A stretch of 64,000 nucleotides of DNA from Eledone cirrhosa (taxonomy: Eukaryota), in contig OZ024743.1 of NCBI GenBank assembly GCA_964016885.1, positions 192,324,001 to 192,388,000 on the forward strand, given 5' to 3'. A program made the translations under genes and the position numbers. Positions 5,901 through 59,127 of this stretch are shown one piece after another. Numbering within the stretch: the first letter of the stretch is position 1; every line of letters starts with the position of its first letter. The notes below the pieces were generated by a model. The model did no database searches and was not told where the DNA came from. It saw nothing but the letters and a program-made list of their open reading frames with translations.

Positions 5901-6214
5901 CACGCAGTAATACAAAAGACCCAAGTTCACACAGGTACAAGCCGAAGCTGAAGCATATAGACAATATTCCTGCACACCCTCCCACTGTAAAGTGGACGTG
6001 TAGGTGCCACGGCAAAAAAGCACCCAGAACTCACTGTAAATGAGGTTAGTGTTAGGAAGGGCATCCAGCTGTTGAAATCAAGCCAGAATCAGTTCCCGTA
6101 TGAGCAACACAAGGTCAGCCGACCGGACACTGCCCACAACAGGACAACAAGTCTAACCCATGCTAGCGTGGAAGAACGGACGTAAAACGGTGATGATGAT
6201 GATGATGATGATGA
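2950..6214 (+). mobile_element. RTE-clade LINE, decayed (stops and frameshifts); 5' boundary approximate
   Basis: APE motifs (VQETRW, ISAYAPQ, AGDFNGH, SQIDFIL, SQHNLV) at ~3020-3660. RT motifs (FVDLEKAFDRV, GVHQGSVLSP, YADD at 4981). RTE-type C-terminus (RRLRWYGHVMR, GRPKKTW) to 5951. 3'UTR ends in (GAT)n. Confidence 0.9.
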
Positions 6215-7093: not shown

Positions 7094-7146
<53 letters not shown>

Positions 7147-7407
7147 TTTCTTTATTAACCACAAGGGTTTACATAAAGTAGACATTAAGGACAGTGCAGG
7201 ACAATGCAGGACGGTACAAATGGGCATTTCTGCGTGTAAAAAAAACAAAAACAGAGGATGTAACAAAAATAACAATGAAAATAACAATGAAAAATTCCCC
7301 AATAGGGGGGAGACTTCGGAGGGACATTTGTGGAGAAAGCCCAGTAAAAAGCCACAATGACCCTGACCACCAAGGCAAGTGCCCTCTCCCAGTTTTCCAC
7401 CTTTAGT

Positions 7408-10400
7408 TTACAGATATATACTCAGAGTCGGCCCATTCACTCGGGCCATTCTTGCTTCTCTCACCCATCTTTCAACAAAATGCTGGGAAGAGAGCACTTC
7501 CTTCTCTACTCTGATTTTCCTTTTCAAATGAAATTTGAAAAAGTCAATCAGAGCATCACCGAAGAGGTAAGTGCTCGTCTTCAGCCCTTTCAAACGTGTC
7601 CACCATACTATCTCTTTCGCCATGGCCACCAGACAGATAAAAACTGCCTGCCCTTCTCGGCTAAAGGAGGAGGGCGGGGCAATCCTCACGATAGACTCAG
7701 ATGATAGCTGGATCCGTCCTAAACGCGACAGCAGGTGTTCGACATAAACCCACAAGTCAGCAATTTTCGGACACTGGACGAGTGCGTGCAGGACGGTTTC
7801 GTCGCCCTGCGCGCATCTCGGACATGCCCGGCTGACGGCACCTCCATGCCTGTAGAGTTTATCCCGAACTGGCAAGGCTCCTCGGTAGCACTGCCAGGCC
7901 AGAGATTTCTGGAAGTTGTCCATAGGCCCTGGCCCGAAAGTTCTTCCGAAGAGATTGGCTAGTTGATTTTCGTCGACGCCTAGAGTTTCCCCAAGTACGT
8001 CGTCGCTCTTCCCCTCCACTAATCCTCTATAGAACGCCGAGGTGGAGTTTCCACCGATCACATTGCCCGATTGGTCGAGGGCTGTGAGCGCCTGAAGACA
8101 TTCCAGTCTCCAGGCGCTCCCTCTCGGTCTTCGCTTGACCCAGGACTGCAGCTCCGTCAAGGAAACGAGCTGGGGAAAAACGCGTCTAGCAAACGGCGAC
8201 CACACCTGATCACCGTCGAGGAAGAGGTGGAGATGTCGTAGCCTGAGCGCGTGCCTGCGCATCATCAGCCACGGCATGCCCAGCCCTCCACGTAGCGGGT
8301 GTTGACAACAGATGGACCGCCTGACCATCGGAGCACGTCCCTTCCACAAAAAGCGAAAGAGCAAACGCTCCAGCGCAGTCAGGCGAGGCTTAGGACAAGG
8401 TACGACGGTTAGGCGGTAGCAGATGACAGACGCGATGTACGCGTTAGCCACCTCCGCTCGACCTTTCAGGGATAGCTTCCTCTCCGCCCATTTCTGGGTG
8501 AGAGAAGCCACCCTGCTCGTCACCTCGTCCCAGTTTTTGTCCGTCTGGAGGTCCGGACCGAACCAGACCCCTAGCAATTTAACCGGTCCGTCCGTCCAGC
8601 GCCCGACGACGCTGTTGGACGGCATGGACCTGCCTCTCCAGGTGCCGAGCTGCAGGCCCACTGACTTTTCCTGGTTGATCATTGCTCCTGTCACCGCTTC
8701 GTATTCTCTTAGTGTAGTGCCGATCGCCTCGATGTGTTTGGCGTTCGACACCACTACGGTGACATCGTCCGCATATGCTGACACGGATCTTCCGCATCCT
8801 AGTTCGCGCGGGACCCCCCTCAACGTCTCCAGTTTGTGCAGTAATGGCTCGAGAGTCAATACGTACAAGAGGGACGAGAGGGGACATCCTTGGCGGACCG
8901 AGCGCATGATGTTGAACGGTTCCGACAGGTGACCGTTCACTCTCACCACAGAGCAGATGTCGCTGTGCATGGCAGCGATCCAGCCTCTGAAGACGGGCCC
9001 AAAGCCAGCCGCCCTCAGGACTGCCGCTAGGTAACGATGGTCGACCCTATCGAAAGCTTTCGACTGATCTAAATTGATCAAGGACCCACCCGTGCCAGGT
9101 TCCCTAGCTACCCTCTCTACGATGTATCGCATGAGGTGGAGGTTGTCGTGGATGGATCTGTCGGGAATGGCGCATGTCTGCGCCTCTCCCACCAGACCAC
9201 CAACGACAAGCGCCAACCTCTTTGCTAGCACCTTGGCCAAAATCTTAAACTCTGTGTTTAGCAGAGTTATGGGCCGGAAATTGTCTATGTTATCCCCCTT
9301 GTTCGGATCCTTTCTCAGCAGTGCCACCGCTCCTCGGCTCACAGAACTGGGAATTCTCCCGTTCTGTTGCCAGTTGCAGTAGACGTCCGCCAAGAGGCCT
9401 CCGAACAAGTCTGGCATCTGTACGTAAAGTTCATAGGGCAGACCATCCAAACCAGGCGATTTACCCCTTGTGCAGCCAGTCATTGCCTCCCGTACTTCAG
9501 CGGCTGTTATCGGCTTTTCGCAACACTTCGCCTCAGTGGCCGAGAGCCGCGGCAGTCCGTCGAGGTAGACACTAAAGTCCATCCCTCTACCCGGCCCCCC
9601 GCTGCCCCCGAACAGCTGAGTGAAGTGTCGCTGAAAAGCTTCACACATTTGCCCGGGATCGAGTAGCATGCGCCCGTCGTGGTCCACCAAAGACCGGATC
9701 GTGGCTTTGTTGCCACGACGCGCCTCCGCCACTCGGGCCCATTGAACGGCTTTCGTCCCCTCGTCTCTGAGAGCACGCACCCTAGCTCTGACAACGCAGC
9801 CTTCGTGCTTTGCATTGAAGAATTGGTCAAGGGCCAATTTCGCCGCAAGCACGTCGGTCGCAATGCCTTTGCTAAGCGCCTCGTCTAATTTTCTAACTAG
9901 TTCTCCCTCTGCTCTATTTTTCTCTATTGCTAAAGCCTTACTAAACCTAATCGATTCTATTCTAATCGCTCTTTTCAGAGCAAACCACCACTTGTTGTTG
10001 ACGATGGCCCCCGTCAACGCCCGCTTAACTAGTTCGCTAATCCGGTCTCTGTAGGCCTTGCGCGCTGGTAAGGACGCGTTTAGCTTCCAGTAGCCGGGTC
10101 CTCGTCTATGAAGCCTATCTAAGTCAAGCACACAGATCACGAATTTGTGGTCCGTGTAGCTGACTATCTTGAATTGTGGACAGCCTATGCTAGACCTATC
10201 TATTTCCCTACAAAATACTCTATCTAGATATGATCTGGATGACCCTATGCGGTTTGTCCAAGTCCACATTGGCACATTCGGGAAATCCAATCGGTACCTG
10301 TCAGACAGTTCAAAACGCCTGAGCAGGTTGGTGAGGCTCTTGCACCCTCCACCCCTATCCGCTAATCCCACACAGTCCCAGCGTGCATCTAAGATCCCGT

Positions 10401-10827
10401 TCCAGTCGCCCACTAACACTAAAGAGCGCGACGTTCCAAGAAAGGTCTCCAGACGCCGGAAGAAATCAGGCCGCCCTGCTCCTGTCGGGGCATAGACGGC
10501 CACTAGCCTGAAAGCTTGCCCGTCTCCGCTGGTCACGTCCAGCACCACCAGCTTACCCTCTGGGTCCAGGAAGATGGCCCGTATGGCGAGATCCAAACCT
10601 CTCCGAAAAAGTACAGCAACTCCTCCACCGGATCCAGGACGGCTGGGAGATGCGTACACATCGTAGCCGCCGAAGATCGGTGCGAAGGCCCGTGCTTTGG
10701 AGATTCTGGTCTCGCTGATGGCCACTACATCTATGTTTAGTGACCTGAGGTCGTTGAGCAGGTGACCCTGCTTCCATGACGACCCCAAGCCACGCGCATT
10801 TATGCTGCCTATTCTGAGTGAGGTCAT
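7408..10827 (-). CDS. Tx1/L1 ORF2p: APE endonuclease, reverse transcriptase and C-terminal zinc finger
   Basis: 1139 aa uninterrupted. Motifs SINARGL, SETR, GDWNG, LDRV, TDH; KSPGLDG, NFRPITLLN, DQSKAFD, RQGCPLS, YADD; CPRC...ETVLHALVQC. Confidence 0.95.
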   Translation of the reverse strand: MTSLRIGSINARGLGSSWKQGHLLNDLRSLNIDVVAISETRISKARAFAPIFGGYDVYASPSRPGSGGGVAVLFRRGLDLAIRAIFLDPEGKLVVLDVTSGDGQAFRLVAVYAPTGAGRPDFFRRLETFLGTSRSLVLVGDWNGILDARWDCVGLADRGGGCKSLTNLLRRFELSDRYRLDFPNVPMWTWTNRIGSSRSYLDRVFCREIDRSSIGCPQFKIVSYTDHKFVICVLDLDRLHRRGPGYWKLNASLPARKAYRDRISELVKRALTGAIVNNKWWFALKRAIRIESIRFSKALAIEKNRAEGELVRKLDEALSKGIATDVLAAKLALDQFFNAKHEGCVVRARVRALRDEGTKAVQWARVAEARRGNKATIRSLVDHDGRMLLDPGQMCEAFQRHFTQLFGGSGGPGRGMDFSVYLDGLPRLSATEAKCCEKPITAAEVREAMTGCTRGKSPGLDGLPYELYVQMPDLFGGLLADVYCNWQQNGRIPSSVSRGAVALLRKDPNKGDNIDNFRPITLLNTEFKILAKVLAKRLALVVGGLVGEAQTCAIPDRSIHDNLHLMRYIVERVAREPGTGGSLINLDQSKAFDRVDHRYLAAVLRAAGFGPVFRGWIAAMHSDICSVVRVNGHLSEPFNIMRSVRQGCPLSSLLYVLTLEPLLHKLETLRGVPRELGCGRSVSAYADDVTVVVSNAKHIEAIGTTLREYEAVTGAMINQEKSVGLQLGTWRGRSMPSNSVVGRWTDGPVKLLGVWFGPDLQTDKNWDEVTSRVASLTQKWAERKLSLKGRAEVANAYIASVICYRLTVVPCPKPRLTALERLLFRFLWKGRAPMVRRSICCQHPLRGGLGMPWLMMRRHALRLRHLHLFLDGDQVWSPFARRVFPQLVSLTELQSWVKRRPRGSAWRLECLQALTALDQSGNVIGGNSTSAFYRGLVEGKSDDVLGETLGVDENQLANLFGRTFGPGPMDNFQKSLAWQCYRGALPVRDKLYRHGGAVSRACPRCAQGDETVLHALVQCPKIADLWVYVEHLLSRLGRIQLSSESIVRIAPPSSFSREGQAVFICLVAMAKEIVWWTRLKGLKTSTYLFGDALIDFFKFHLKRKIRVEKEVLSSQHFVERWVREARMARVNGPTLSIYL

Positions 10828-10862
10828 GTTTAAAATAGAGTGGAAAAGATGGGAAAGACCAC

Positions 10863-12953
10863 TTACCGTACTTTTGGTAGAGGAGGGATGGTTTTTACAT
10901 CCCTTTTCACTTGATCGTCTGGTGAAGGGACCGTTGAATCGTCCCTTCGGCTGGTCGTCGGCTCTTCTAAGAGAATGTCTGAGTATACTCTTCGATTGAT
11001 GGTTCCTCCTAGGTCTCTGAAATCACCAACTGCGTTGGGGAATTTCGTTTTAATATTTGTGTATTGTTTCTGTGCTATTTTTAGCAGTCTTATGTTAGTT
11101 GGCGTTTTGATTGGTGCTGGTATTATGTAGTCCTGTTGTGAAATGTCTGTGTGTTCAATTATGTAAGTCATTAGTTTCTTGTGTGTATTTATTGCCGTGC
11201 ATTTGTTTTTCTGGGGGTGGGGTGTGGTTCTGCTATTTTCTTGTCGTTGTTGCTGGGTGTGTGTGTTTTGTTGTTGTGTTTGCGATGTTGGTGCTTGTGG
11301 TGGTGGTGTTGAAGGTGTTGTTGGCGGTGGGGTTGTCGCCGGTGGTGATGGTGGCGCTAGTGTGGGTGGTGATGGTGTTGGTGTTGTTGCTGCTGTGGGT
11401 CTCTTTGCAGTAGACTTTACCCTTTTCTCATTTCTTTCCTCCCTTTTCAAAGGCGACGATGCGCTGCTTCTGCGTTTGTGCCTTCTTACGACCTTTTGCC
11501 ATCCCTCTCCCACCTCACACTCCATGTCTGATTCTGTGAGGTCGGGGAGGGGTACCAGCTCCACTCTTTCACTTGTTGTTGGTGATGTTTGCACTGGAGT
11601 CTCTGTTGCAGCTGCATTTGGTATTGCTGTTGTTGTTGTTAATATTTCCACTGCTGCTGCTGTTTTTGATTTCCGTGGAGTGGGTATGGGTGCCACGGAC
11701 CTATCGTTCCTGGTTGCCGCTTGTCCTGTTGCTGGTAGCCGTGGAGCCGGATTCGGAAGGAGGGGGGTTTTCTCCTTTCTCAGGGTCTTCTCGTTGCAGA
11801 AGGCCCTGAGGTGAGTCTTCGATCCACAGCGAAAGCATTTCGGGCGTTTGCCCTCAACACTTATGGGCAGTTGAGTGCCGTTATCGAAGTCTATCACATC
11901 CGGGATAGCTTCGATGCACTCCTGGTTGGTTTGGATTAGCATCTCAATGGAGGAGCCGACCCAATCTTCTCTTACTTTTTTCTGTACTTGCAGTACAGTT
12001 GTTTTGTCCTCGATTCCGACGAGGACAGACGCGGCCAGCCAAGAAGGGGTCATTCCGGGGGGGACGTGGGTTAGTTTGACCCTCACAATTTTTTGCCCAC
12101 AGTAGGAGGGCACCAACACCATTTCCTCGCTCCTTAGGGTCACTACTGATTGGGCCTTTGCCTCCTGGGGTGTGGCAAAAAGTACGTCTACGGTGGCATA
12201 TTTTTTGCCTCGGGTGATGTGCGTTTTCCGCTGCCACACAGACCCCAAGGCTTTTTGTATTTGGGCCTCTGTGGCTCTTTCCACCCTACGGGATTTTGTA
12301 CTTACTGTACGGTACGTGACCGTACAGTGCTCTTGGGTTTCGAAAAAATTTTTCGCTGCCTTGCAGATTGCTCGGTGTCCGTTCTTTGTCACCATCTTCT
12401 TCGCTTCCTCTAATTCCTCATTTGTTATGAGGATTGTTTCCAAGTTTTTCGCAATACCTGCAAATGAGATTGGTTTTTCTCTGCTGTTGTTGTTGTCGTC
12501 AGAGCTGCTGGTACTTTTGTTGTTGCTGCAGGTACTACGACTACTGCCTCCGCCGCTGTTGCTGTGGTTGTTGTTGGTGTTGCTGCTGCTAATGCTGTTG
12601 TTGTTTATGCTGCTGGTGATGCTGTTGCGGCTGCTACTGTTGTTTTCATTGTCACTGTTGCTGTTGTTATTACGGCTGCTACTGCTATTATTCCTGACGT
12701 CAGACGAATGAACTGGGTTTTCGTATTTCCCGCACACCTGTTTCGTCGCTGTCGTCGTCGTCGTGGAGAAACCTTGCACGCTTTGCACGGGACTTTTCTT
12801 TTCTTTCGTCACTTGCGAAAGAGAAGGGAGGGAGAGAGACACATTTAAAGAAGGGAGGGAGAGAGACAATCTTCTCTCTGCTGTAGTGATGATTGAGGAA
12901 GAAGAAGACGGAATGAGTGGGAGTGACGTATGAAATTTCTTTTTCGTAGCCAT
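10863..12953 (-). CDS. Tx1/L1 ORF1p (type A): CCHC zinc knuckle, probable RRM-like region, low-complexity N/S/T/P tracts
   Basis: 696 aa open. CFRCGSKTHLRAFC (CX2CX4HX4C). Lies directly upstream of ORF2. Confidence 0.9.
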   Translation of the reverse strand: MATKKKFHTSLPLIPSSSSSIITTAERRLSLSLPSLNVSLSLPSLSQVTKEKKSPVQSVQGFSTTTTTATKQVCGKYENPVHSSDVRNNSSSSRNNNSNSDNENNSSSRNSITSSINNNSISSSNTNNNHSNSGGGSSRSTCSNNKSTSSSDDNNNSREKPISFAGIAKNLETILITNEELEEAKKMVTKNGHRAICKAAKNFFETQEHCTVTYRTVSTKSRRVERATEAQIQKALGSVWQRKTHITRGKKYATVDVLFATPQEAKAQSVVTLRSEEMVLVPSYCGQKIVRVKLTHVPPGMTPSWLAASVLVGIEDKTTVLQVQKKVREDWVGSSIEMLIQTNQECIEAIPDVIDFDNGTQLPISVEGKRPKCFRCGSKTHLRAFCNEKTLRKEKTPLLPNPAPRLPATGQAATRNDRSVAPIPTPRKSKTAAAVEILTTTTAIPNAAATETPVQTSPTTSERVELVPLPDLTESDMECEVGEGWQKVVRRHKRRSSASSPLKREERNEKRVKSTAKRPTAATTPTPSPPTLAPPSPPATTPPPTTPSTPPPQAPTSQTQQQNTHTQQQRQENSRTTPHPQKNKCTAINTHKKLMTYIIEHTDISQQDYIIPAPIKTPTNIRLLKIAQKQYTNIKTKFPNAVGDFRDLGGTINRRVYSDILLEEPTTSRRDDSTVPSPDDQVKRDVKTIPPLPKVR

Positions 12954-13192
12954 GTTGTTTTTTGTTTAAAATGAAATTTTGGGTACAAAACCCCAATAAC
13001 TGGTTATTTAACCCCGAAGGGCCAAATAACGGACAGAAAGACCCCTCTCACGAGGAGGAGGGTGTCTTTATCAACAATTTGGTTCAAGTTTTAAACAATT
13101 TACAATTGTTTTAACGGTTAAAAATTACTATACCTTACAGAGCCGAGCCTCCGTCAACCATGGCATTCAATAATAATAATAATAATAATAAT

Positions 13193-16100
13193 GTTTTCTT
13201 TATTAACCACAAGGGTTCACATAAAGTAGACATTAAGGACAGTACAGGACAATACAGGACGGTACAAATGGGCATTTCTGCGTGTAAAAAAACAGAGGTT
13301 GAAATAAAATAACAAAGAAAAATTCCCCAATAGGGGGGAGACTTCCAAGGGACATTTGTGGAGAAAGCCCATTAAAAGACCACAGTGGCCCTGACCACCA
13401 GGGCAAGTGCCCTCTCCCAGTTTTCCACCTTTAATTTACAGACACATACTCAGAGAAGGCCCATTCATTCGGGCCATACTTGCTTCTCTCACCCATCTTT
13501 CAACAAAATGCTGGGAAGAGAGCACTTCCCTTTCTACCCTGATTTTCCTTTTCAAATGAAATTTGAAAAAGTTAATCAGGGCATCACCGAAGAGGTAAGT
13601 GCTCGTCTTCAGCCCTTTCAAACGTGTCCACCATACTATCTCTTTCGCCATGGCCACCAGACAGATAAAAACTGCCTGCCCTTCCAGGCTAAAGGAAGGG
13701 AGCGGGGCAATCCTCACGATGGACTCAGCTGATAGCTGGATCCGTCCTACACGTGACAGCAGGTGTTCGACATAAACCCACAAGTCAGCAATGCTCGGAC
13801 ACTGGACGAGTGCGTGCAGTACGGTTTCGTCGCCCTGCACGCATCTCGGACATGCCCGGCTGACGGCACCTCCATGCCTGTAGAGTTTATCCCGAACTGG
13901 CAAAGCTCCTCGGTAGCACTGCCAGGCCAGGGATTTCTGGAAGTTGTCCATAGGCCCCGGCCCGAAAGTCCTTCCGAAGAGATTGGCTAGTTGATTTTCG
14001 TCGACGCCTAGAGTTTCTCCAAGTACGTCGTCGCTCTTCCCCTCCACTAATCCTCTATAGAACGCCAAGGTGGAGTTTCCACCGATCACATTGCCCGATT
14101 GGTCGAGGGCTGTGAGCGCCTGAAGACATTCCAGTCTCCAAGCGCTCCCTCTCGGTCTTCGCTTGACCCAGGACTGCAGCTCCGTCATGGAGACGAGCTG
14201 GGGAAAAACGTGTCTTGCAAACGGCGACCACACCTGATCACCGTCGAGGAAGAGGTGGAGATGTCGTAGCCTGAGCGCGTGTCTGCGCATCATCAGCCAC
14301 GGCATGCCCAGCCCTCCACGTAGCGGGTGTTGACAGCAGATGGACCGCCTGACCATCGGAGCGCGTCCCTTCCACAAGAAGCGAAAGAGCAAACGCTCCA
14401 GCGCAGTCAGGCGGGGCTTAGGACAAGGTACGACGGTCAGGCGGTAGTAGATGACGGATGCGATGTACGCATTCGCCACCTCCGCTCGACCTTTCAGGGA
14501 TAGCTTCCTCTCGGCCCATTTCTGGGTGAGAGAAGCCACCCTGCTCGTCACCTCGTCCCAGTTTTTGTCCGTCTGGAGGTCTGGACCGAACCAGACCCCT
14601 AGCAATTTAACCGGTCCGTCCGTCCAGCGCCCGACAACGCTGTTGGACGGCATGGACCTGCCTCTCCAGGTGCCGAGCTGCAGGCCCACTGACTTTTCCT
14701 GGTTGATCATTGCTCCTGTCACCGCTTCGTATTCTCTTAGTGTAGTGCCGATCGCCTCGATGTGTTTGGCGTTCGACACCACTACGGTGACATCGTCGGC
14801 ATATGCTGACACGGATCTTCCGCATCCTAGTTCGCGCGGGACCCCCCTCAACGTCTCCAGTTTGTGCAGTAATGGCTCAAGAGTCAATACGTACAATAGG
14901 GACGAGAGGGGACATCGTTGGCGGACCGAGCGCATGATGTTGAACGGTTCCGAAAGGTGACCGTTCACTCTCACTACAGAGCAGATGTCGCTGTGCATGG
15001 CAGCGATCCTGCCTCTGAAGACGGGCCCAAAGCCAGCCGCCCTCAGGACTGCCGTTAGGTAACGATGGTCGACCCTATCGAAGGCTTTCGACTGATCTAA
15101 ATTGATCAAAGACCCACCCGTGCCAGGTTCCCTAGCTACCCTCTCTACGATGTATCGCATGAGGTGGAGGTTGTCGTGGATGGATCTGTCGGGAATGGCG
15201 CATGTCTGTGCCTCTCCCACCAGACCACCAACGACAAGCGCCAACCTCTTTGCTAGCACCTTGGCCAAAATCTTGAACTCTGTGTTTAGCAGAGTTATGG
15301 GCCTAAAATTATCTATGTTATCCCCCTTGTTCGGATCCTTTCTCAGCAGCGCCACCGCTCCTCGGCTCACAGAGCTGGGAATTCTCCCGTTCTGTTGCCA
15401 GTTGCAGTAGACGTCCGCCAAGAGGCCTCCGAACAAGTTTGGCATTTGTGCGTAAAGTTCATAGGGCAGACCATCCAAACCAGGCGATTTACCTCTTGTG
15501 CAACTAGTCATTGCATCCCGTACTTCAGCGGTTGTTATCGGCTTTTCGCAACACTCCGCCTCAGTGGCCGAAAGCCGCGGCAGTCCGTCAATGTAGACAC
15601 CAAAGTCCATCCCTCGATCCGGCCCGCCACTGCCCCCGAACAGTTGCGTGAAGTGTCGCTGAAAAGCTTCACACATTTGCCCGGGATCGAGTAGCATGCG
15701 CCCGTCGTGGTCCACCAAAGACCAGATCGTGGCTTTGTTGCCACGACGCGCCTCCGCCACTCGGGCCCATTGAACGGCTTTCGTCCCCTCGTGTCTGAGA
15801 GCACGCACCCTAGCTCTGACAACGCAGCCTTCGTGCTTTGCATTGAAGAATTGGTCAAGGGCCAATTTCGCCGCAAGTACGTCGGTCGCGATGCCTTTGC
15901 TAAGCGCCTCATCTAATTTTCTAACTAATTCTCCCTCTGCTCTATTTTTCTCTATTGCTAAAGTCTTACTAAACCTAATGGACTCTATTCTAATTGCTCT
16001 TTTCAGAGCAAACCACCACTTGTTGTTGACGATGGCCCCCGTCAACGCCCGCTTAACTAGTTCGCTAATCCGGTCTCTGTAGGCCTTGCGCGCTGGTAAG

Positions 16101-19097
16101 GACGCGTTTAGCTTCCAGTAGCCGGGTCCTCGTCTATGAAGCCTATCTAAGTCAAGCACACAGATCACGAATTTGTGGTCCGTGTAGCTGACTATCTTGA
16201 ATTGTGGACAGCCTATGCTAGACCTATCTATTTCCCTACAAAATACTCTATCTAGATATGATCTGGATGACCCTATGCGATTTGTCCAAGTCCACATTGG
16301 TACATTCGGGAAATCCATTCGGTACCTGTCAGACAGTTCAAAACGTCTGAGCAGGTTGGTGAGACTCTTGCACCCTCCTTCCCTATCCACTAATCCCACA
16401 CAATCCCAGCGTGCATCTAAGATCCCGTTCCAGTCGCCCACTAACACTAAAGAGTGGGACGTTCCAAGAAAGGTCTCCAGACGTCGGAAGAAATCAGGCC
16501 GCCCTGCTCCTGTCGGGGCATAGACGGCCACTAACCTGAAAGCTTGCCCGTCTCCGCTGGTCACGTCCAGCACCACCAACTTACCTTCTGGGTCCAGGAA
16601 GATGGCCCGTATGGCAAGATCCAAACCTCTCCGAAAAAGCACAGCAATTCCTCCCCCCGATCCCGGACGGCTGGGAGATGCGTACACATCGTAGCCGCCG
16701 AAGATCGGTGCGAAATCCTGTGCTTCGGAGATTCTGGTCTCGCTGATGGCCACTACATCTATGTTTAGTGACCTGAGGTCGTTGAGCAGGTGGCCCTGCT
16801 TCCATGACGACCCCAAGCCACGCGCATTTATGCCTGCCTATTCTGAGTGAGGTCATGTTGAAAAGGAGTGGAAAAGATGGGAAAGACCACTTACCTTACT
16901 TCTCGTAGGGGAAGGACGGTTTTTCCATCCTTTTCACTGCTTGTGGCCTCCTCAGGAAGGATGTCCTTATAAATCCTCCTGGAGAGTGCTTGTCGGAAGT
17001 CTCCGATGTCTTTGGGGAATTTTTGTTTTAGTGTCATGTACGTTTTCTGTGTGATGCGAGTGATTTGTATGTGTGGAGGTGGTGTGAATTTTGGGGTTGT
17101 TGTGTAGTCTTTTTCTGTGATGCTGGTGTTGTGTTGGATGTAGTGTAATAATTGCTTGTTGTTCAAATTTAATGCTGTGTAGTGTGTATCGTTTTGGTTG
17201 TTTTGTTTTGTTTGCGTTTGTTGTGGGTTTGTTTCTGTTTCGCATTTTGGTGACTTTTGTGGTGTAGGTGATGGTGGTGTTGGAGTTAATGATGGTGATG
17301 GTGTTGGTGTTTGGGTTGATGGGGTTGGTGATGCTGGTGTGGATGGTGGCATATCTGTCCTAACTTTTTTGTTTCTTAGTTTATTTGTTTCTCTCTGTAT
17401 TTTGTTTTTGGAGGGGGAAGGAAGAGAATTTTTTCTTTTTTGGTTTCTTTTTTTTTTTCCGGATATCGTTTCCCACTCCTCGTCGTCACAATCTGTCTCC
17501 AGTTGTGATAGGCCGGGGAGTGGAAAATCCTCCACAGCCGTTAGTTTTGGTTGTGGTGTGGTGGATGGTGTAGGCGCTGGTGCTAGTTCTGAAGCGTTGG
17601 GTGGTGGTGGTGTTGGTTTTGCTGGTGGTGGTAGTGGTGTTGGTTTTGCTACTGTTGCTGGAGTTGTTGCTGTTATAGTTGCTTCTGTTGTTGCTGCTAC
17701 AGTTGTTGCTGCCATCTCTGCTACTGGTGGTGTTGATGGTTGTGTCACTGGGGTGGGTAGGAGAGGTGGCCTCAACCTTTTAGCCTGAGGGCAGAAAGCC
17801 CTTAGGTGGGTTCCTTCACCACAAACGACACACCTAGGTCTTCTGCCCTCGACAATTACCGTGAGGTGGCTGCCGTCAGTGAGGTCTATTACCTCTGGGA
17901 TCTCCTCAATGCTTTTTTTGGTCCGCTTGGATCAGGAGCTCCATCCCAGATCCGGACCAGTTTTCCTGCTTTTCTTTTGCTACTGCTATTATTTTCGTGT
18001 TGGCTTCGATGCCGGCGAGGACAGCCGCTATTAGCCAGGGAATTTCGATGGCCGGTGGAACGTGGGTCACCCTGATCTTTACGAGTCTCTGGCCACAATA
18101 GCTTGGGACGAGTGTGAGGTCGTCACTTTTAAATGGGGCCATGGAGTGTTCTCTAGCCTCCTCTGGTGTTTCAAAGAACACATCCACGGTTCCATACTTT
18201 TGCCCACGTCTGATGTGGGTTTTTCTTGCCCACACATGTCCCAAAGCTTTTGGGATTTGGGACTCGGATGCCCGTTCCAGTCGGCGCGATTTTACATTTA
18301 TTGTTCTATACGACACGGTGCACAGGCGCCGATGCTCCATTTTATTAGGTGGGGGGGTGAGGCTGACCCTGTACCCATCTTTCTTTACCATTTGTTTGGC
18401 ATTTTCTAAATCTTCTTGAGTTACCGTGAACGCTTCGAATTATTTTGCTACGATGGCGAAACTGAGGGTCGGTTTTATAATGTCATTGTTGTTGTTGTTG
18501 TTATCGTTATTTGTGTTAATCTTAATTTTTGTTTCAGTTGTGGTGGTGGTGACGTCAGTCGTCTTTGGTGGGGAAGAGTCCATTTTGCTTGATTTCATTT
18601 CGACATCACGAGTTAATTTATTTTTTTCTTCTTTTGTTTCTGTTGTCGCGGTGGTGGTGGGGGTGGGGGTTGTCGCGGTGGTGGTGGTGGTGGTGGAGGC
18701 TTTAACACCTGCAGTCATTGGTAATGGCGGGAAATGAATGTCTGCCTGAGACAAATTTAAAATATTGCTACTGCTTATATTTTTTTTTGTGTTGGCAAAC
18801 GTAGTAACATTTACAATGGTGGTGTCGGTGTGAGGTGTTATTTTGTGAGGAAGGCTTTCAGCTGCTTCGTGCAGAGGGGAATTAGCCATTTTTTTTCAAA
18901 GAAATTTTTTGATAATAATAAAAGTTAAAATTTTGGGCACAAAGCCCCAATCTTTTTGGGTGTCCTTTTCGGAAAACAATGTATGTGTGCTTATAAACAG
19001 TTAACAATAAAATTTTCCATAAATGGCAATTTTTAACAAACGGAAATAACAAACCTTTGCGGAGCTCACGATGATACGATTTACTACGTAGGTCGCC
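13193..19097 (-). mobile_element. Full-length Tx1/L1 LINE, copy B (type B ORF1, frameshifted)
   Basis: ORF2 is nearly identical to copy A but has a 1-bp insertion near its start (~16833). ORF1 is in pieces over 16891-18889 with CVVCGEGTHLRAFC. 5' end GGCGACCTACG abuts (AAT)n at 19098-~19150. Confidence 0.95.
13436..16856 (-). pseudogene. Tx1 ORF2 (APE-RT-ZnF), one frameshift just after the start codon
   Basis: 1126-aa open frame. The N-terminal MTSLRIG is in a different frame, and RQGCP is changed to RQRCP. Confidence 0.85.
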
Positions 19098-19147
<50 letters not shown>

Positions 19148-25680: not shown

Positions 25681-28593
25681 GACCACATGTGTGAAGACGT
25701 TACAATTCTGCAGGAGAAAAGGTTCGTAATTTTAAGCTGTTTTAAAGTATCATTTTTTGTATTTTCTTGTCGATAACGAAGCATAAGATACTCACCTTGT
25801 TCCAAGGAAGGGAGACGTCTCAATATTCGTGCTTTAAACCCGAATATTCCGATTTATTTTTAAAAGCTTCGAAAAGCCCCCCCCCCCCCAAATGGAAATT
25901 TTCAACCTTGAAACGGTAAACAACATATAGGTCAAAAGGTCAAAAACAGCCACTATATATCTCACCAAGACTACTACTACAACAGACATGTCTGTCGTCC
26001 ACTCCACTGAATATAAAAACAAAACACAGGAGTTACCATCACAACCGCTCCCTTCTGTGATAGTAGCAGTACCATCTCAAAACCACATCACCACCACCAC
26101 AACAACAACAACCCAGAAAAACAACAACAATAACACCAACAGCCTCAATATAAACACTAATAACGGTAGCAACAGCAACAACAAACAAAACAACAAGAAC
26201 AACAACAGCAACAACGACAGCACCAACATCAAGAACAACGGAGAGTAAAGGTCCGCATTCCCAGGATCCCACCAGGAATGAACATATGGTGGCTCCTGGG
26301 ATATGTAATCGAGGAGGAAACAGACACTACCCTCCTAGATATCAAAAAGACACAGAGAGAAGAAGACTGGTCCGGAATGGATCTGGAGATTCTTCTCCTA
26401 ATGAAACCAGAGGACATCAACAACATCCCGGATTTTTCCCGCCTGCAGGACGGGACAACAATCCAATTAATCACTGAGGGTTGAAGGCTACACTGCTTTG
26501 TCTGCGGAGAAGCAACGCATCTGCAAGCCTTTTACCCTCAGCTCAAAAATGCAAGAATTCGCAAACCTTCTTTGTTGCCAACGGCATTGTCAGCACAGAA
26601 AGCTGCACCACCACCATCAAAAACAACACCAACAATGACACGGGTAACCCCACCATAATAAAAAACAGCCGGACTACCACCAGCACCGAAACCAACCCAA
26701 GGGGAAAACGAGGAAAGCTTTCCCACTCCTCCTACCCCTCCAATTATGCATATAGACAAAACCATAAATGCACACATAGACACAGATACACTCACAGCCA
26801 CAGACCCTTTGTCTTCAGCCCTGTCTTCAGAAGCTGGATCGCTGCAATGCACAGCGGTACCTGCTCGGTGGTCAAGGTCAATGGCCACCTCTCGGAACCG
26901 TTTCGGCTCTCCCGATTGGTCCGTTAAGGGTGCCCTCTCTCTTCCCTTCTATACGTATTGACTCTCGAGCCTTTACTGCGGAAGCTGGAGCTGTTGCAGG
27001 GCATCCCGCTCGAACCGGGGCGAGGAAAGGTTGTGTCGGCTTATGCGGACGACATCACCGTGATGGTGTCGGGCACATCGGAAATCGAGGTGGTCGGCAC
27101 CTTATTGAAGGAATATGAAAGGTTGACAGGAGCCAAACTTAACCCGGAAAAGTCGGTGGGTTTGCAGCTCAGCACCTAGAGAGGCAAATCCATGCCATCC
27201 AACAGCATCGGGGGCGGGGGGGCTGGATGGATGGACCGGTAAAGTTGCTCAGGTTTGGTTCGGACCATACCTCCAGGTGGAAAAGAATTGGGACGACGTA
27301 ACGAGTAGGGTAGTCAGTCTCACCCAAAAATGGGATGCAAGGAAGCTATCACTGAAAGGTCGCTCAGAGGTGGTGAATGCGTATATCGCGTCCATCATCT
27401 ACTACCGCCTGACCGTCGTTCCTTGCCCACATCCGTGCCTCGCCAGGTTGGAACGACTCCTCTTCAAATTCTTGTGGGGAGGACAAGTCCCGTTGGTGAG
27501 GCGATCTATCTGCTACCACCACCCTCTACACGGAGGGCTGGGCATGTCATGGTTAATGATGCGAAGACATGTGCTGAGGCTGTGACTATTTCCAGATATT
27601 CTGCCTAAACGGTGAACAGGAGTGGTCGTCGTTTATCAGATGAGCCTTTCCGCAGCTCGTTTCTTTGACTGAGCTGTAGTCCTGGGTCAAGAAGAAACCA
27701 AGACTGGGTGACTGGCACCTGGAATGTTGCCAGGCACTCATTGCCCTCTACCAAGCGGGCAATGCGATCGGTGGAACTTCCACTCTTGAGTTCTATAGAG
27801 GTGGGAAAGTGCAATGAGAAGCTTTGGGCCTCAACGAAGTCGAACTGACCAGTCTGTTCCGGAGGACTTTCGAGCCAGGGATGATGGACAATTTCCAGAT
27901 ATCCCTCGCTTGGCAGTGCTACTGGGGGGGTACTGCCAGTTCGGGATAAACTCTACAGGCACGGAAGTGCTGTTAGACGGACCTACCAGAGATGCGCACA
28001 GAGCGACGAAACCATTCTGCACGCACTTGTCCAATGTCCGTGCATTACTGACTTGTGGAGTTATGTCGAACAGCTACTGTCACGTGTAGAACGGATCTGG
28101 CTATCAGCCAAGTCCATAGTGAAGATCGACCCGCCGCCTTCCTTTGGCCAGGAAGAGCAGGCAATTTTCCTGTCTGGTGGCAGTTGCGAAAGAGGTTATA
28201 TGGTGGACCAGATTGAAAGGACTGAAGACAGACACTTTTTCTCTTCAGCCAATCCCTCATCAAGGTGAGAATGGCCCGTGTGAATGGGCCTACTCTGACC
28301 ATGCTCCTATAGGCTAGGTAATTTGAGGAGAGGGGTTCTCTCCCTGGGTGCCCTAGAAGTGCAGGGTGGTTCAGGATTGGTGGGGTACCTGAGTCACCCC
28401 TGAGTCGTCCACCACCCTACAGGGGAATTTATTTTATTATATTTATGCATAGATTATTTTATATTTTTATATCTCCATTGTTAAATTAGTCTTGCCATTG
28501 TGCACTTTTACTCGACCTTATTGTAAACCCCCACTGTCAGTGTCTCTGTATTGTACCCTACATGTCGGCCCTTGTGGCCAATAAATGAAATCA
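25681..28593 (+). mobile_element. Divergent Tx1 subfamily copy with a large internal deletion (ORF1 joined to mid-RT)
   Basis: ORF1 relic (EEDWSGMDLEIL, CFVCGEATHL), jump at ~26810 into FSPVFRSWIAAMHS, YADD at ~27042, distinct 3'UTR ending AATAAATGAAATC-ATT. Confidence 0.85.
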
Positions 28594-29205
28594 TTATTAA
28601 CTTTTTCAAGTTTCACTTGAAAAGGAAAATTAGTGTGGAGAGGCAAGTGCTGCCTTCTTGCAAGTTTGTTGAAAGGTGGCTGAAAGTAGCGAGAATGGTC
28701 CGAGTGAACGGGACCGCTCTGAATATATGCCTGTAGTTTTAGAAATGGAAAAATTGAGAGGGCGCTTGCCCTGGTGGCCAGGGTGGCCGTGGTCTTTTGT
28801 GTAGTTTTCGCCACAAGCAACCCTCGGAGGTTTCCCCCCTATTGGGGAATTTTTTCAATTTTCATTTTTATTGTTTATATATATATATATATATATATAT
28901 GTTTCTATGTCTTTTTCTTTTTCTTTTCTTATATAAATAATTGTTTCTACGTTAGGCACAAGGCCAGCAAATACCCAGTGCATTACTGGTACTTTATTTT
29001 ATCGACCCCGTAAGGATGAAAGGCAAAGTTAACCTCGGCGGGATTTGAACTCAGAATGGCAAGGGCCGTAACTCTATACGTCAAAGCATGGCGTCCGACC
29101 CTCTCCCAAAACTAAATCTTTACACGAACAAAACCCACATCGTGCCGTCCTGTGCCGCCTGTAATGTTTTTCTTGATGTCAGCCCCTGTGGCCAATAAAG
29201 AAATC
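28594..29205 (+). mobile_element. Short 3'-end Tx1 fragment (copy C-like) carrying a nested SINE
   Basis: INFFKFHLKRKI...NICL plus 3'UTR. A minus-strand ATT-tailed SINE sits at ~28940-29108. Confidence 0.85.
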
Positions 29206-29479: not shown

Positions 29480-32400
29480 GACGGTGAATCCACGCACGCT
29501 TCTTATCGCCTCCAGTTTTTTTCAACAGTTTACCTCGTTTTCAACCGTTCTAAACCTTTTCTAAAGTTTTAAACTTGATAAAAGTTTAGAAGTGACCCAC
29601 CTAATACAGGGGTTCACTCGTAAATAATATTATTTGAAAAAAAATTAATTTCTTTCAACATGGATAACACAAGAAAGAGAGAGAGCGCTGTCAGACATCT
29701 CAGAGAGAGGGAGACTTTGTCAACATATCAACAAGACAGCGTTCTAGCGAAGGTAAATATAAAAGAAAATATTACGAATGAAAAGAGGAACAATTGCATT
29801 TTTAATGATATTGTTACAGATTTAAAATTACCAAATATTTCTAACACAAACAACACCAACAATAACACCAACAACAACACCATCAATAACAACAGCAACA
29901 ACAAAAATAACAACGGTAAGGTCGAGAACGACAATAACAATGACAATAACAACAGCCACAACAACAATAATAGTAGGAACTGTATCAACAAAAACAACAA
30001 CAACAGCAACAACAGTACTGTAGCAAGAGTTGCCTCCCTTGTTGTGACGATCACATCACCAGTAGAGTAACGCTCTCTAGACAGGAAGTAGCTGGAGTTA
30101 CTTCCCGTTGTGGTTACCTTCTTTGTCAATTCCGTCCAGGGACCATATAAAAGGGACAGCTCAAAGATGTCTCCCTCTCATTTGCCCTTTCGGCTGCTGG
30201 CCTTTGGCCAGGCGCGTTCCGCCCCGCCGAGGGTATACTCTCTGGCAACCTGAACATGATAATGTAAAGACCTCTCGGTCCCTTGCGCGATGATTTCAAA
30301 ACGGTAACAAATAACTTTACTTCATTTTTTCATCTACTCTTGACATGTCAACCATTCTATTCTACATAACTCAACTATGTTAAATAAACATTGTACATAC
30401 AACTGAGTCTCCTGTTATATTCATACAATCCAGTATTCTGTTATAGTACCAACGAAAACATCAACAATGACATCGATACCTGTAACAGCGATCTCAGCAA
30501 GACCAGTAGCGGCAGCAATAGTGGTGCCTCTGAAAAAGGGACCACTTCTTTTGAAGGTGTCGCCCGAAATATCGAAACAGTGTTAGTCACAGAGGAGGAG
30601 GTGGCAGTCGCAAGGGCCATGGTGACAAGAAATGCCAATAGAGTTTCCCTGAAACCTCCACCCGATTTTTTCAAGGACCAGCAGCTACGGACGGTGACTT
30701 ACCGCACCGTAAGCAAAATGTCACATCGGGTGGAGAGAGCCACGGAGGCTCAAATCCAAAAGGCCTTGGGGTGCGTCTGGGCATGCAAAACCCACATCAC
30801 CCGAGGCAGAAAGTACGCTACAGTAGACGTACTTTTCGCCACCTCCAAGAAGCGAAGTCTCACTTTAGGGTTTGCAAAGAGTGAGACTTCAAAGTGACAC
30901 AGATCTCACACGACGTGCCCATACCTTGGCTGGCCACTTGCTGGAATAGAGGACAGGACGACCATGCTGCAAGTAGAGAAAATGTGGAGAGAGAACTGGT
31001 CAGGTATAGGCATGCAAATGCTTATACAAACTGACCAGGAGTGTATCGACGCTACCCCTGATATCATAGACCTCGAGGAAGAACTCCAACTCCCTATAAG
31101 CGTGGAAGGAAGACGGCCAAAATGGTATCTCTGTGGGTCAAAACGTCACCTCAGGGCCTTTTGCCCGCAGAAGACAGCGAAGAAGAAGGCCCCTCCCCTT
31201 CCAATACCTGGTCCGCTGCTACCAAGAGCAGGGCAGGCAACAAACGCAGAAGCCCCTTCTACAGTGAGTAGGAGGGCAACGTCCGTGGCACCCGTACCAA
31301 AGCCACAGACAACTAAAGCAGCAGCATCAGTGGCGGCAACACCAGTAGCTACATTTGCAGTAGCTGCACCAGCAACAAAATCGCCGGAGAGGGCTCCACT
31401 ACCACCACCAACAGCCGTGGAGCACATACCCCTCCCAGACGCCACGGAATCCGACAGGGAGTCTGAGGCGGGAGTGAAGTGGCAAACGGTCTGCTACAAA
31501 AAACAAAATAACTTCACCCTCCAAAAGCGAAGGCACACAAAGAGTGGTAAAGGCTGCAAGGAGACTTGCAGCAACACCATCACCATCACCACCACAAGCA
31601 CCACCGCCAACAACAACCACACCACCACCAGCAACACCAAAAACACCAACAACGCAAACACAACCAAACACACACACCCAACAGCAACAAAATCACCCCT
31701 CCCCCAAAAAATACACAGCCATAAACATGGCAAATAAAGAACTCATACAACATATAAAGCAGCACACAGACATCACAGAAAAAAAACTACTACACTCTAC
31801 CAACACCAAGAACTCTCCCGACAAACATAAGCATCATTGATATCAAAATAGAACAATACAAACGTTTAAAACAAAAATTCCCCAACGCAGTTGGAGACTT
31901 CAGATGATCGGTTACCAAGAGGATATACACTGACATCCTCTTGGAAACACCCATGACCAGCCAAAGGGACGGTTCTACTGTCCCTTCACCACATGATCAA
32001 GGTAAGTGACTCTTTCTCACTTGCCCCATTTCTCATCCAACATGGCCGTACTTAGAATAGGCAGTATAAATACACGTGGCCTGGGGTCATCTTGGAAGCA
32101 GGGTCACCTGCTCAACGACCTCAGGTTACTAAACATAGATGTGGTGACCATCCGTGAGACCAGAATCTCCGAAGAACGAGCCTTGGTACCGATCTTCGGC
32201 GGATACGATGTATACGCATCTCCCAGCCGTCCAGGATCGGAGGGAGGGGTTGCCGTCCTTTTTCGGTGAGGCTTGTCTCGCCATACAGGCCATCTTCCTG
32301 GACCCAGAAGGTAAGTCGGTGGTGCTGGACGTGACCGGCAGCGAAGGCAATGCTTTCAGGTAGCAGCCGTCTACGCCCCAACTGGAGCAAGACGACCAGA

Positions 32401-38627: not shown

Positions 38628-38677
38628 TATATGCATACATATACACATACACACACACATATATGTATATATGTATA

Positions 38678-38747
<70 letters not shown>

Positions 38748-38988
38748 GTATACATAATATACACATACACATAGATACACCCATATACATATATGTATAT
38801 ATACACACGTATATGCATATATATATACACACACATACACACACACATATACATACATATATACATATACACACATACACATGTATACGCACACACGAAG
38901 TGTACACATACATGCACATACACACACACACATATACATACATATATACAGACATGCATATATATATATATATACACATATATATACA
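38628..38988. repeat. (TA)/(CA)/(TACA) compound microsatellite
   Basis: Direct inspection. Confidence 0.95.
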
Positions 38989-39086
38989 TTATTAAATATT
39001 TGCTCTAACGTTCTTATATATTTGATATATATTTATCCTTATCGAGCCCTCTTTGGATTTTAGTCTTCAAATTTATTATTATTACT

Positions 39087-39129
<43 letters not shown>

Positions 39130-39229
39130 CTTTTATCATATTTATTCGGATTTTAGTCTTCACATGCACTGGGATAATTGCTGGCCTTGTGCCAAAAGTA
39201 GACACAATTATTATTATTACTTCTACTAC

Positions 39230-39411
39230 GGTGGATTGGCAGTATCGGTAGAGGGTCGGACGCCATGCTTTGCAGCACAGCTACGTCCCTTTACGGACTG
39301 AGTTCAAATCCCGCCGAGGTTAACTTTGCCTTTCATCCTTACGGGGTCGATAAAATAAAGTACCAGTAATACACTGGGATAATTGCTGGCCTTGTGCCAA
39401 AAGTAGAAACA
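39230..39411 (+). mobile_element. ATT-tailed SINE with 17-bp target site duplication
   Basis: ATTATTACTTCTACTAC at 39213-39229 and 39412-39428. Inserted in the tail of an earlier SINE fragment. Confidence 0.85.
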
Positions 39412-39492
39412 ATTATTACTTCTACTACCATATACACATATATACATATATACATATACATACATACATACACACATATATGTATATATATA

Positions 39493-53461: not shown

Positions 53462-53510
<49 letters not shown>

Positions 53511-56500
53511 GGCGACCTACGTAGTAAATCATCGTGAGCTCCGCAAAGGTTTGTTATTTCCGTTTGTTAAAAATTGCCATTTATGGAAAATTTTATTGTT
53601 AACTGTTTATAAGCACACATACATTGTTTTCCGAAAAGGACACCCAAAAAGATTGGGGCTTTGTGCCCAAAATTTTAACTTTTATTATTATCCAAAAATT
53701 TCTTTGAAAAAAATGGCTAATTCCCCTCTGCACGAAGCAGCTGAAAGCCTTCCTCACAAAATAACACCTCACACCGACACCACCATTGTAAATGTTACTA
53801 CGTTTGCCAACACAAAAAAAAATATAAGCAGTAGCAATATTTTAAATTTGTCTCAGGCAGACATTCATTTCCCGCCATTACCAATGACTGCAGGTGTTAA
53901 ACCCTCCACCACCACCACCACCGCGACAACCACCAGCACCACCACCGCGACAACAGAAACAAAAGAAGAAAAAAATAAATTAACTCGTGATGTCGAAATG
54001 AAATCAAGCAAAATGGACTCTTCCGCACCAAAGACGACTGACGTCACCACCACCACAACTGAAACTAAAATTAAGATTAACACAAATAACGATAGCAACA
54101 ACAACAATGACATTATAAAACCGACCCTCAGTTTCGCCATAGTAGCAAAACAATTCGAAGCATTCACGGTAACTCAAGAGGATTTAGAAAATGCCAAACA
54201 AATGGTAAAGAAAGATGGGTACAGGGTCAGCCCCCCCCCCCCCTCACCCCACCTAATAAAATGGAGCATCGGCGCCTATGTACCGTGTCGTATAGAACAA
54301 TAAATGTAAAATCGCGCCGAGTGGAACGGGCATCCGAGTCCCAAATCCAAAAAGCTTTGGGACACGTGTGGGCAAGAAAATCCCACATCAGACGTGGGCA
54401 AAAGTATGGAACCGTGGATGTGTTCTTTGAAACACCAGAGGAGGCTAGAGAACACTCCATGGCCCCATTAAAAAGTGACGACTTCACACTCGTCCCAAGC
54501 TATTGTGGCCAGAGACTCGTAAAGATCAGGGTGACCCACGTTCCACCGGCCATCGAAATTCCCTGGCTAATAGCGGCTGTCCTCGCCGGCATCGAAGCCA
54601 ACACAAAAATAATAGCAATAGCAAAAGAAAAGCAGGAAAACTGGTCCGGATCTGGGATGGAGCTCCTAATCCAAGCGGACCAAAAAAGCATTGAGGAGAT
54701 CCCAGAGGTAATAGACCTCACTGACGGCAGCCACCTCACGGTAATTGTCGAGGGCAGAAGACCTAGATGTGTCGTTTGTGGTGAAGGAACCCACCTAAGG
54801 GCTTTCTGCCCTCAGGCTAAAAGGTTGAGGCCACCTCTCCTACCCACCCCAGTGACACAAGCATAAACACCACCAGTAGCAGAGATGGCAGCAACAACTG
54901 TAGCAGCAACAACAGAAGCAACTATAACAGCAACAACCCCAGCAACAGTAGCAAAACCAACACCACTACCACCACCAGCAAAACCAACACCACCACCACC
55001 CAACGCTTCAGAACTAGCACCAGCGCCTACACCATCCACCACACCACAACCAAAACTAACGGCTGTGGAGGATTTTCCACTCCCCGGCCTATCACAACTG
55101 GAGACAGATTGTGACGACGAGGAGTGGGAAACGATATCCGGAAAAAAAAAGAAACCAAAAAAGAAAAAGTTCTCTTCCTTCCCCCTCCAAAAACAAAATA
55201 CAGAGGGAAACAAATAAACTAAGAAACAAAAAAGTTAGGACAGATATGCCACCATCCACACCAGCATCACCAACCCCATCAACCCAAACACCAACACCAT
55301 CACCATCATTATCCCCAGCACCACCATCACCTACACCACAAAAGTCACCAAAATGCGAAACAGAAACAAACCCACAACAAACGCAAACAAAACAAAACAA
55401 CCAAAACGATACACACTACACAGCATTAAATTTGAACAACAAGCAATTATTACACTACATCCAACACAACACCAGCATCACAGAAAAAGACTACACAACA
55501 ACCCCAAAATTCACACCACCTCCACACATACAAATCACTCGCATCACACAGAAAACGTACATGACACTAAAACAAAAATTCCCCAAAGACATCGGAGACT
55601 TCCGACAAGCACTCTCCAGGAGGATTTATAAGGACATCGTTCCTGAGGAGGCCACAAGCAGTGAAAAGGATGGAAAAGCCGTCCTTCCACTACGAGAAGT
55701 AAGGTAAGTGGTCTTTCCCATCTTTTCCACTCCTTTTCAACATGACCTCACTCAGAATAGGCAGCATAAATGCGCGTGGCTTGGGGTCGTCATGGAAGCA
55801 GGGCCACCTGCTCAACGACCTCAGGTCACTAAACATAGATGTAGTGGCCATCAGCGAGACCAGAATCTCCGAAGCACAGGCTTTCGCACCGATCTTCGGC
55901 GGCTACGATGTGTACGCATCTCCCAGCCGTCCGGGATCGGGGGGAGGAGTTGCTGTGCTTTTTCGGAGAGGTTTGGATCTTGCCATACGGGCCATCTTCC
56001 TGGACCCAGAAGGTAAGTTGGTGGTGCTGGACGCGACCAGCGGAGACGGGCAAGCTTTCAGGTTAGTGGCCGTCTATGCCCCGACAGGAGCAGGGCGGCC
56101 TGATTTCTTCCGGCGTCTGGAGACCTTTCTTGGAACGTTCCGCTCTTTAGTGTTAGTGGGCGACTGGAACGGGATCTTAGATGCACGCTGGGATTGTGTG
56201 GGATTAGTGGATAGGGAAGGAGGGTGCAAGAGTCTCACCAACCTGCTCAGACGTTTTGAACTGTCTGACAGGTACCGAATGGATTTCCCGAATGTACCAA
56301 TGTGGACTTGGACAAATCGCATAGGGTCATCCAGATCATATCTAGATAGAGTATTTTGTAGGGAAATAGATAGGTCTAGCATAGGCTGTCCACAATTCAA
56401 GATAGTCAGCTACACGGACCACAAATTCGTGATCTGTGTGCTTGACTTAGATAGGCTTCATAGACAAAGACCCGGCTACTGGAAGCTAAACGCGTCCTTA

Positions 56501-59057: not shown

Positions 59058-59058
<1 letters not shown>
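53511..59058 (+). mobile_element. 5'-complete Tx1 LINE, copy D (type B ORF1), defective
   Basis: Same 5' end as copy B. ORF1 53713-55707 frameshifted. ORF2 55742-58815 has a stop, a 350-bp deletion at ~56966 and a 4-bp duplication. (ATT)n on both sides. Confidence 0.95.

Positions 59059-59127
<69 letters not shown>

Follow-up and report, generated by a model that had tools for sequence, protein, structure and literature searches.

A conserved 5′ splice-site motif at the ORF1/ORF2 border of L1-clade LINEs in Eledone cirrhosa, with a possible role in U1 docking

The window analysed here is a 64,000-nt stretch of the Eledone cirrhosa genome (3.0 Gb; contig OZ024743.1, positions 192,324,001 to 192,388,000), which holds tandem and scattered copies of one L1-clade long interspersed nuclear element (LINE) with two open reading frames, ORF1 and ORF2. 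At the end of ORF1 the element carries a near-perfect 5′ splice site (donor), and sequence comparison indicates that this donor is real, is under selection at the nucleotide level and is wider spread than first reported. The explanation we favour, with somewhat less than even confidence, is that the donor would be a selected site for U1, acting mostly without excision, and that ORF2 would come from the unspliced two-gene RNA. The usual view has LINEs avoiding splicing, a process that in human L1 gives dead-end copies; a near-perfect donor held at one spot amid sequence turnover suggests that LINEs share with Copia elements the ability to recruit U1. The motif itself is short and readily mutated.

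The original prediction placed a G/GTAAGT motif (the slash marks the would-be splice point) at the ORF1 end of window copies A, B, D, E and F, and it is present in all five. The spacers it delimited in A (10866-10814, 53 nt), B (16894-16843), D (55704-55755) and E (61328-61379; 52 nt in the last three) were reproduced, each running from GT to CAG behind a phase-2 donor. The junctions are as follows.

10861..10869, minus strand: donor of copy A, ACG/GTAAGT, phase 2, 39 nt upstream of the ORF2 ATG
10814..10866, minus strand: would-be micro-intron of copy A, 53 nt, consisting of donor, pyrimidine-rich spacer, ATG and a weak CAG
16843..16897, minus strand: junction of copy B, donor AAG/GTAAGT, phase 2; would-be intron of 52 nt (16894-16843); ORF2 ATG at 16856
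31999..32060, plus strand: junction of copy F, AAG/GTAAGT (donor 32002), phase 1; ATG at 32042; donor within a predicted 9-bp hairpin
55701..55755, plus strand: junction of copy D, B type; would-be intron 55704-55755, 52 nt
61325..61379, plus strand: junction of copy E, B type; would-be intron 61328-61379, 52 nt

When 5.8 kb of an A-type copy were scanned, the donor at the ORF1 end was the only one scoring 8/9 or better. Further subfamilies were gathered without the donor as query: F was found from the window copy, G from an ORF2 fragment, and H, I and J from a degenerate motif of the ORF2 N-terminus, among the first 100 of 1,265 matches; the P0001 N-terminus as query gave only A, B and F copies among 30 of 150 matches. 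The seven subfamilies (A, B, F, G, H, I and J) form five lineages (A/B, F/H, G, I and J), the ORF2 proteins of A, G, J and I being 68–79% identical. All carry the donor, which scores 8–9/9 in 7/7 subfamily representatives. The hexamer is kept in 29/30 copies of F, 15 of the 16 G copies with a junction and 5/7 copies of H; J has GTGAGT in 16/17 copies (one truncated), and all 16 copies of I have either GTAAGT (11) or GTAGGT (5). Both subfamily-wide variants, that of J and that of the five I copies, are A-to-G changes, which are tolerated at these positions in 5′ splice sites. Conservation in further subfamilies, named as a check by the original prediction, is borne out in this form, as GTRAGT or GTAGGT.

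The surroundings of the donor have changed far more than the donor. In an alignment of the five lineages anchored on it and spanning 60 columns, the only invariant letters are the six of G/GT.AGT; four-fold degenerate sites of ORF2 are invariant at 77/278, and at that rate the invariance of the donor has a probability of about 4.5e-4. The distance from donor to ORF2 start is 35–41 nt in all seven subfamilies, with a spacer of 72–81% pyrimidine between them, and A stands at position -3 in 7/7. The motif falls in ORF1 phase 2 in A/B, phase 1 in F/H and J, and phase 0 in G and I. Since it spans all three phases, it is kept as RNA sequence, and protein coding does not explain it. Among distant L1/Tx1-like loci from metagenomes (21–32% identical, some redundant), 69 of 80 reach the ORF2 start, and in 1/69 a comparable donor lies no more than 120 nt from ORF2.

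The original prediction took the junction for a micro-intron whose regulated excision would yield an ORF1–ORF2 fusion, the unspliced RNA alone being retrotransposed. Judged by frames, acceptors and genomic copies, this reading is improbable. Excision to the first CAG does join the two frames in copies A, D and E, but in copy B the element's own ORF2 is frameshifted by a 1-nt insertion past the acceptor. A pyrimidine tract follows the donor, as described, yet it does not abut the acceptor of A or B, where 9–10 of the 16 positions before the CAG are pyrimidines. Copy F has the phase-1 donor ascribed to it; splicing to its first AG (32055) would run into a stop one codon later, and splicing to the TAG at 32060 would keep the frame. 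The 1-nt difference in spacer length with the spliced frame kept, which had been cited in support, carries no weight because it holds for any intron.

Beyond the window, splicing to the first AG would keep the frame in A/B and in G, and in G it would do so at spacer lengths of 26, 28, 30 and 32 nt alike; the second AG is in frame in F, and the recombinant-looking copy A, with its H-type ORF1 and B-type end, keeps the B phase. The fusion is nevertheless weakened by F, H, I and J, where the first AG does not keep the frame, so that 2/5 lineages agree with it, which is chance level (p = 0.54). Within 110 nt, H has no in-frame AG, I has only AAG at +92 and J only GAG. The would-be introns measure 26–54 nt across families, and the distances to the first AG in G (26–32 nt), J (34) and I (39) also speak against excision, being rated at or under the floor of 30 nt given for GT-AG introns in the part of PMC4675715 consulted. 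Pyrimidines make up 8–10 of the 16 nt before the acceptor in A, B, F, H and I; only in J and G does the tract abut it, forming textbook acceptors (14/16 and 16/16 pyrimidines) 34 and 26–32 nt past the donor. Neither the fusion frame over the five lineages nor an abutting tract in A, B, F, H and I is conserved. A protein search with ORF1 residues 160–400 returned no relative of near or longer length and is hence uninformative on fused proteins.

Copies of a spliced RNA were sought as well. The A/B census covered the whole genome and required an exact match to the 22 nt upstream, which confines it to young copies. The exon end is followed by G in 4,259 copies and by another base in 71, and the T is absent in 41 of the 4,259. 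All 112 exceptions were inspected and consist of point changes and small indels, plus three deletions into ORF2; none joins the exon end to the base following an AG. Copies lacking exactly the 52–53 nt, which the original prediction had proposed to look for, are accordingly absent: 0/4,330 A/B copies are precisely intron-less (95% upper bound 0.07%), acceptors starting GT and products of donors in the 5′ untranslated region (UTR) being outside this search. Approached from the acceptor side, none was spliced among the 50 of 58 matches inspected, including all 18 with A at -3, and none among 12 exceptions in F and two matches in G/J, subfamilies (F, G, J) whose total copy number was not counted. 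In human L1, 116 of 6,609 full-length copies, about 1.8%, are spliced integrated retrotransposed elements (SpIREs) according to the portion of PMC5860796 consulted; at that rate about 78 spliced copies would be expected in the A/B census, against none found. A fusion RNA encodes reverse transcriptase (RT), and with the cis preference of L1, as set out in the available text of PMC4423928, it should copy itself often, so the absence of such copies counts against the fusion unless the spliced RNA is actively excluded. Contigs from four sequencing runs of unrecorded kind were compared with 10775-19080; those of three runs cross a junction unspliced, and the donor is used in none of the 15 joints listed, beyond which there are 1,344 more. 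We count these as evidence neither way.

A conserved donor with no conserved partner acceptor is the pattern that U1 docking predicts, and the partners do drift, the position and frame of the local AG varying among families. Under U1 docking, the consensus site at the ORF1 end, 35–41 nt upstream of the ORF2 start, would bind the U1 small nuclear ribonucleoprotein (snRNP), and the short spacer would mostly be left uncut. The element may gain by having its full-length RNA shielded from premature 3′-end formation, or its elongation aided. ORF2 would be translated off the unspliced two-gene RNA, probably starting by termination–reinitiation over the pyrimidine-rich spacer, and occasional splicing may go on alongside. 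The 5′UTRs of B, G, J and I, which are mutually unrelated, each hold a donor of at least 7/9 at 43–63 nt from the 5′ end; these are 4 of 14 such sites upstream of the junction, and about 0.45 would be expected by post hoc arithmetic. Those of J and G could be spliced to the acceptor before the ORF2 ATG, giving an ORF2-only RNA. Two donor-like 5′UTR sites, one of them scoring lower, lie in the window.

13128..13136, minus strand: donor-like site in the 5′UTR of copy A, AAG/GTATAG, 6/9, about 35 nt from the 5′ end
19049..19057, minus strand: donor-like site in the 5′UTR of copy B, AAG/GTTTGT, 7/9, about 43 nt from the 5′ end

Several observations weigh against U1 docking. Poly(A) hexamers around the donor are about as frequent as chance predicts, and in J the 800 nt before it and the 1,500 nt after it contain none, so no clear site for U1 to suppress was found. 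A model without splicing leaves the textbook acceptors of J and G unexplained, though these lie too close to the donor for easy use. U1 binding is a prediction from the sequence; in the plant Copia element EVD the U1 site also works as a real splice site, as the accessible part of PMC5580714 reports; and the signal of purifying selection in family I, taken up below, is borderline (p = 0.053). The idea of a HUSH decoy was dropped, since intron protection works without a 5′ splice site in the account available from PMC8770142.

The main rival, ranked second after U1 docking and in our view doubtful, has the donor spliced to a distant acceptor in the 3′UTR, the next tandem copy or the host. This would give an ORF1-only mRNA and more ORF1p than ORF2p, like the gag RNAs of Copia, and such an RNA would rarely be retrotransposed for want of RT in cis. 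The position of the donor suits it, as ORF1 stays nearly whole in any phase when cut at or just before its stop, and so do the tandem arrays of copies. A/B have a strong acceptor-like site in the 3′UTR, and G has a TAG after a T-rich tract.

13278..13300, minus strand: acceptor-like site in the 3′UTR of copy B, strong, T-rich tract plus CAG; counterpart in A near 7230

However, the CAG of A/B is CAC in F/H and cannot be aligned in G, I and J, the acceptor not being conserved in F/H, I or J; and the 112 A/B exceptions include no copy joining ORF1 to the 3′UTR, although its 3′ tail would remain (acceptors starting GT were outside that search). Conserved acceptors within ORF2 (+415 and +2801) were rejected as candidates, being explained by codons with no clear synonymous excess. 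A second donor, GTAAGT, lies at ORF2 +271 in B, F, H and G (window 16584, 32311, 56013 and 61637) and is absent from A, I and J. In a broader version, which we consider less likely than not, this LINE clade would set its protein ratio through the spliceosome at the ORF1/ORF2 border, as Copia does, with spliced isoforms kept from retrotransposition: mostly ORF1-only, with an ORF1–ORF2 fusion in A/B and G, a component that is itself quite unlikely.

Two further readings dispense with the spliceosome. One, which we think rather unlikely, is that motif and spacer together act in ORF2 reinitiation, as a translational or RNA-structure element with no more than a resemblance to a donor. The fixed 35–41 nt to ORF2, the pyrimidine content and the constant A at -3 agree with it, and the donor is predicted to be paired in most families, with a 9-bp hairpin in F/H; yet folding is no better than in shuffled sequences (z -0.14, +0.29 and -1.42), and the pairing arm varies by family while the donor letters stay constant. 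The hairpin was also rejected as a selected feature in its own right, its z-scores not being significant. The remaining reading, a functionless coincidence of stop-codon context and pyrimidine-rich spacer inherited from an ancestor, is very improbable and already largely refuted: all families do share a common ancestor and the TAA stop supplies half of the hexamer in A/B, but F/H, J, G and I stop elsewhere and keep the hexamer amid flanks that cannot be aligned.

How ORF2 is started bears on U1 docking through family I, whose AUG-less ORF2 is a natural test of initiation. ATA replaces the ATG in 16/16 copies, with the ORF1 TAG stop overlapping it; the first methionine is codon 35 in 2/3 copies translated, and no YAG within 110 nt joins ORF2 in frame. 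Changes shared by the family are 15 synonymous to 9 non-synonymous, compared with 24 to 41 among singletons (p = 0.053), borderline support for an ORF2 that would still be expressed without AUG and without a usable splice. Translation of L1 ORF2 is reported to be AUG-independent. The pattern in family I points to reinitiation on the unspliced RNA, with a -1 frameshift or mobilisation in trans as possible alternatives. The spacer of family G is a slipping (CT)n repeat, and at its commonest length (10/16) ORF1 and ORF2 form one frame with a single TAG between them, readthrough of which is another possible route to ORF2.

The nearest parallel is EVD, in which U1 binding at the GAG/POL border suppresses premature termination of the full-length RNA (PMC5580714, Oberlin 2017; this comparison follows the part of that paper available). 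As with the shGAG RNA of EVD, a conserved U1-type donor stands at the border of structural and enzymatic coding regions and the unspliced full-length RNA is the replication template. EVD differs in that it is a long terminal repeat (LTR) element and has a single ORF; its intron is genuine, measures about 300 nt and gives rise to the GAG stop, and it has a linked poly(A) site, whereas these LINEs have two ORFs and an ORF1 with its own stop. Of the features of the shGAG arrangement, the conserved border donor is present here; the search for a conserved acceptor and for a premature poly(A) site close by found neither. Human L1 likewise has splice signals within an L1-clade element, but its donors are in the 5′UTR and its spliced RNAs leave retrocopies (PMC5860796, Larson 2018, in the part consulted); the elements studied here have theirs at the end of ORF1, and the search turned up no spliced copy. 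The scheme of termination–reinitiation on bicistronic L1 RNA, as given in the accessible text of PMC4423928, shares the two ORFs, the short spacer and an ORF2 probably made from unspliced RNA; it differs in that here the spacer has a conserved donor and a natural subfamily has ATA at the ORF2 start. A paper listing active L1-Tx1 families in octopus never uses 'splic' in its main text (PMC13282606, seen in part). We found no earlier account of a donor like this one in Tx1/L1 elements in the partly accessible literature, subscription papers and Repbase lying outside the search.

The elements are L1-clade LINEs by ORF2 domains, structure match and ORF layout. The ORF2 domains PF03372, PF00078 and PF13966 all score above cutoff, and the best match among solved structures is human L1 ORF2p (E 2e-52, residues 5–855), followed by R2 at 1e-21. 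The layout is that of the clade, with a separate ORF1 (about 650–700 amino acids (aa) across families, with a CCHC knuckle), a 3′ poly(A) signal, a simple-repeat tail and no LTRs. The Tx1 label, taken over from the original prediction, is putative. The copies concerned are listed below.

7145..13168, minus strand: copy A, full-length intact L1-clade (Tx1-like) LINE, flanked by two (ATT)n runs
10863..12953, minus strand: ORF1 of A, about 696 aa, CCHC knuckle (seen in translation), low-complexity ends
7408..10827, minus strand: ORF2 of A, 1139 aa, with APE endonuclease, RT and zf-RVT
13193..19097, minus strand: copy B, full length, ORF1 broken, 1-nt insertion immediately past the acceptor
26820..28600, plus strand: G-family copy, 5′-truncated and without the junction, from which full G copies elsewhere were found

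The TAA stop of the A ORF1 lies within the donor hexamer. Copy A appears to be a recombinant of H-type and B-type elements, its 5′UTR and ORF1 (window 10867-12953) being of H type and joined to the last 43 nt, spacer and ORF2 of B type. Copies D and E have in common a 348-nt deletion in ORF2 (window 56965 and 62589), which suggests local tandem duplication; as a splicing product it was rejected, being a CAG microhomology deletion and not GT-AG. Full copies start after and finish in (ATT)n (A, B, G and H) or (TCTA)n (I and J), and target-site duplications could not be made out. Units of about 6 kb stand head to tail with (ATT)n (A, B) or (TCTA)n (I, J) between them, in the window at 7097-19145 and 53463-64000 and at further loci, a layout that suggests insertion into microsatellites, the elements' own tails included. 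A related fragment, 62–64% identical, lies within an Octopus sinensis protein (a tectonic-3-like model), and this LINE-derived stretch stops at residues matching the ORF2 +271 donor.

Other elements share the window. At 48982-52406 (minus strand) a further non-LTR element was recognised by eye from the translation; its long RT ORF is accompanied by a zinc and restriction-like nuclease region at the C-terminus. Helitron/PIF1-like helicase fragments occupy 37121-43893 on both strands (by eye from translations), and RTE-like LINE fragments with endonuclease and an RT C-terminus are found at 3099-5951 (plus strand; by eye).

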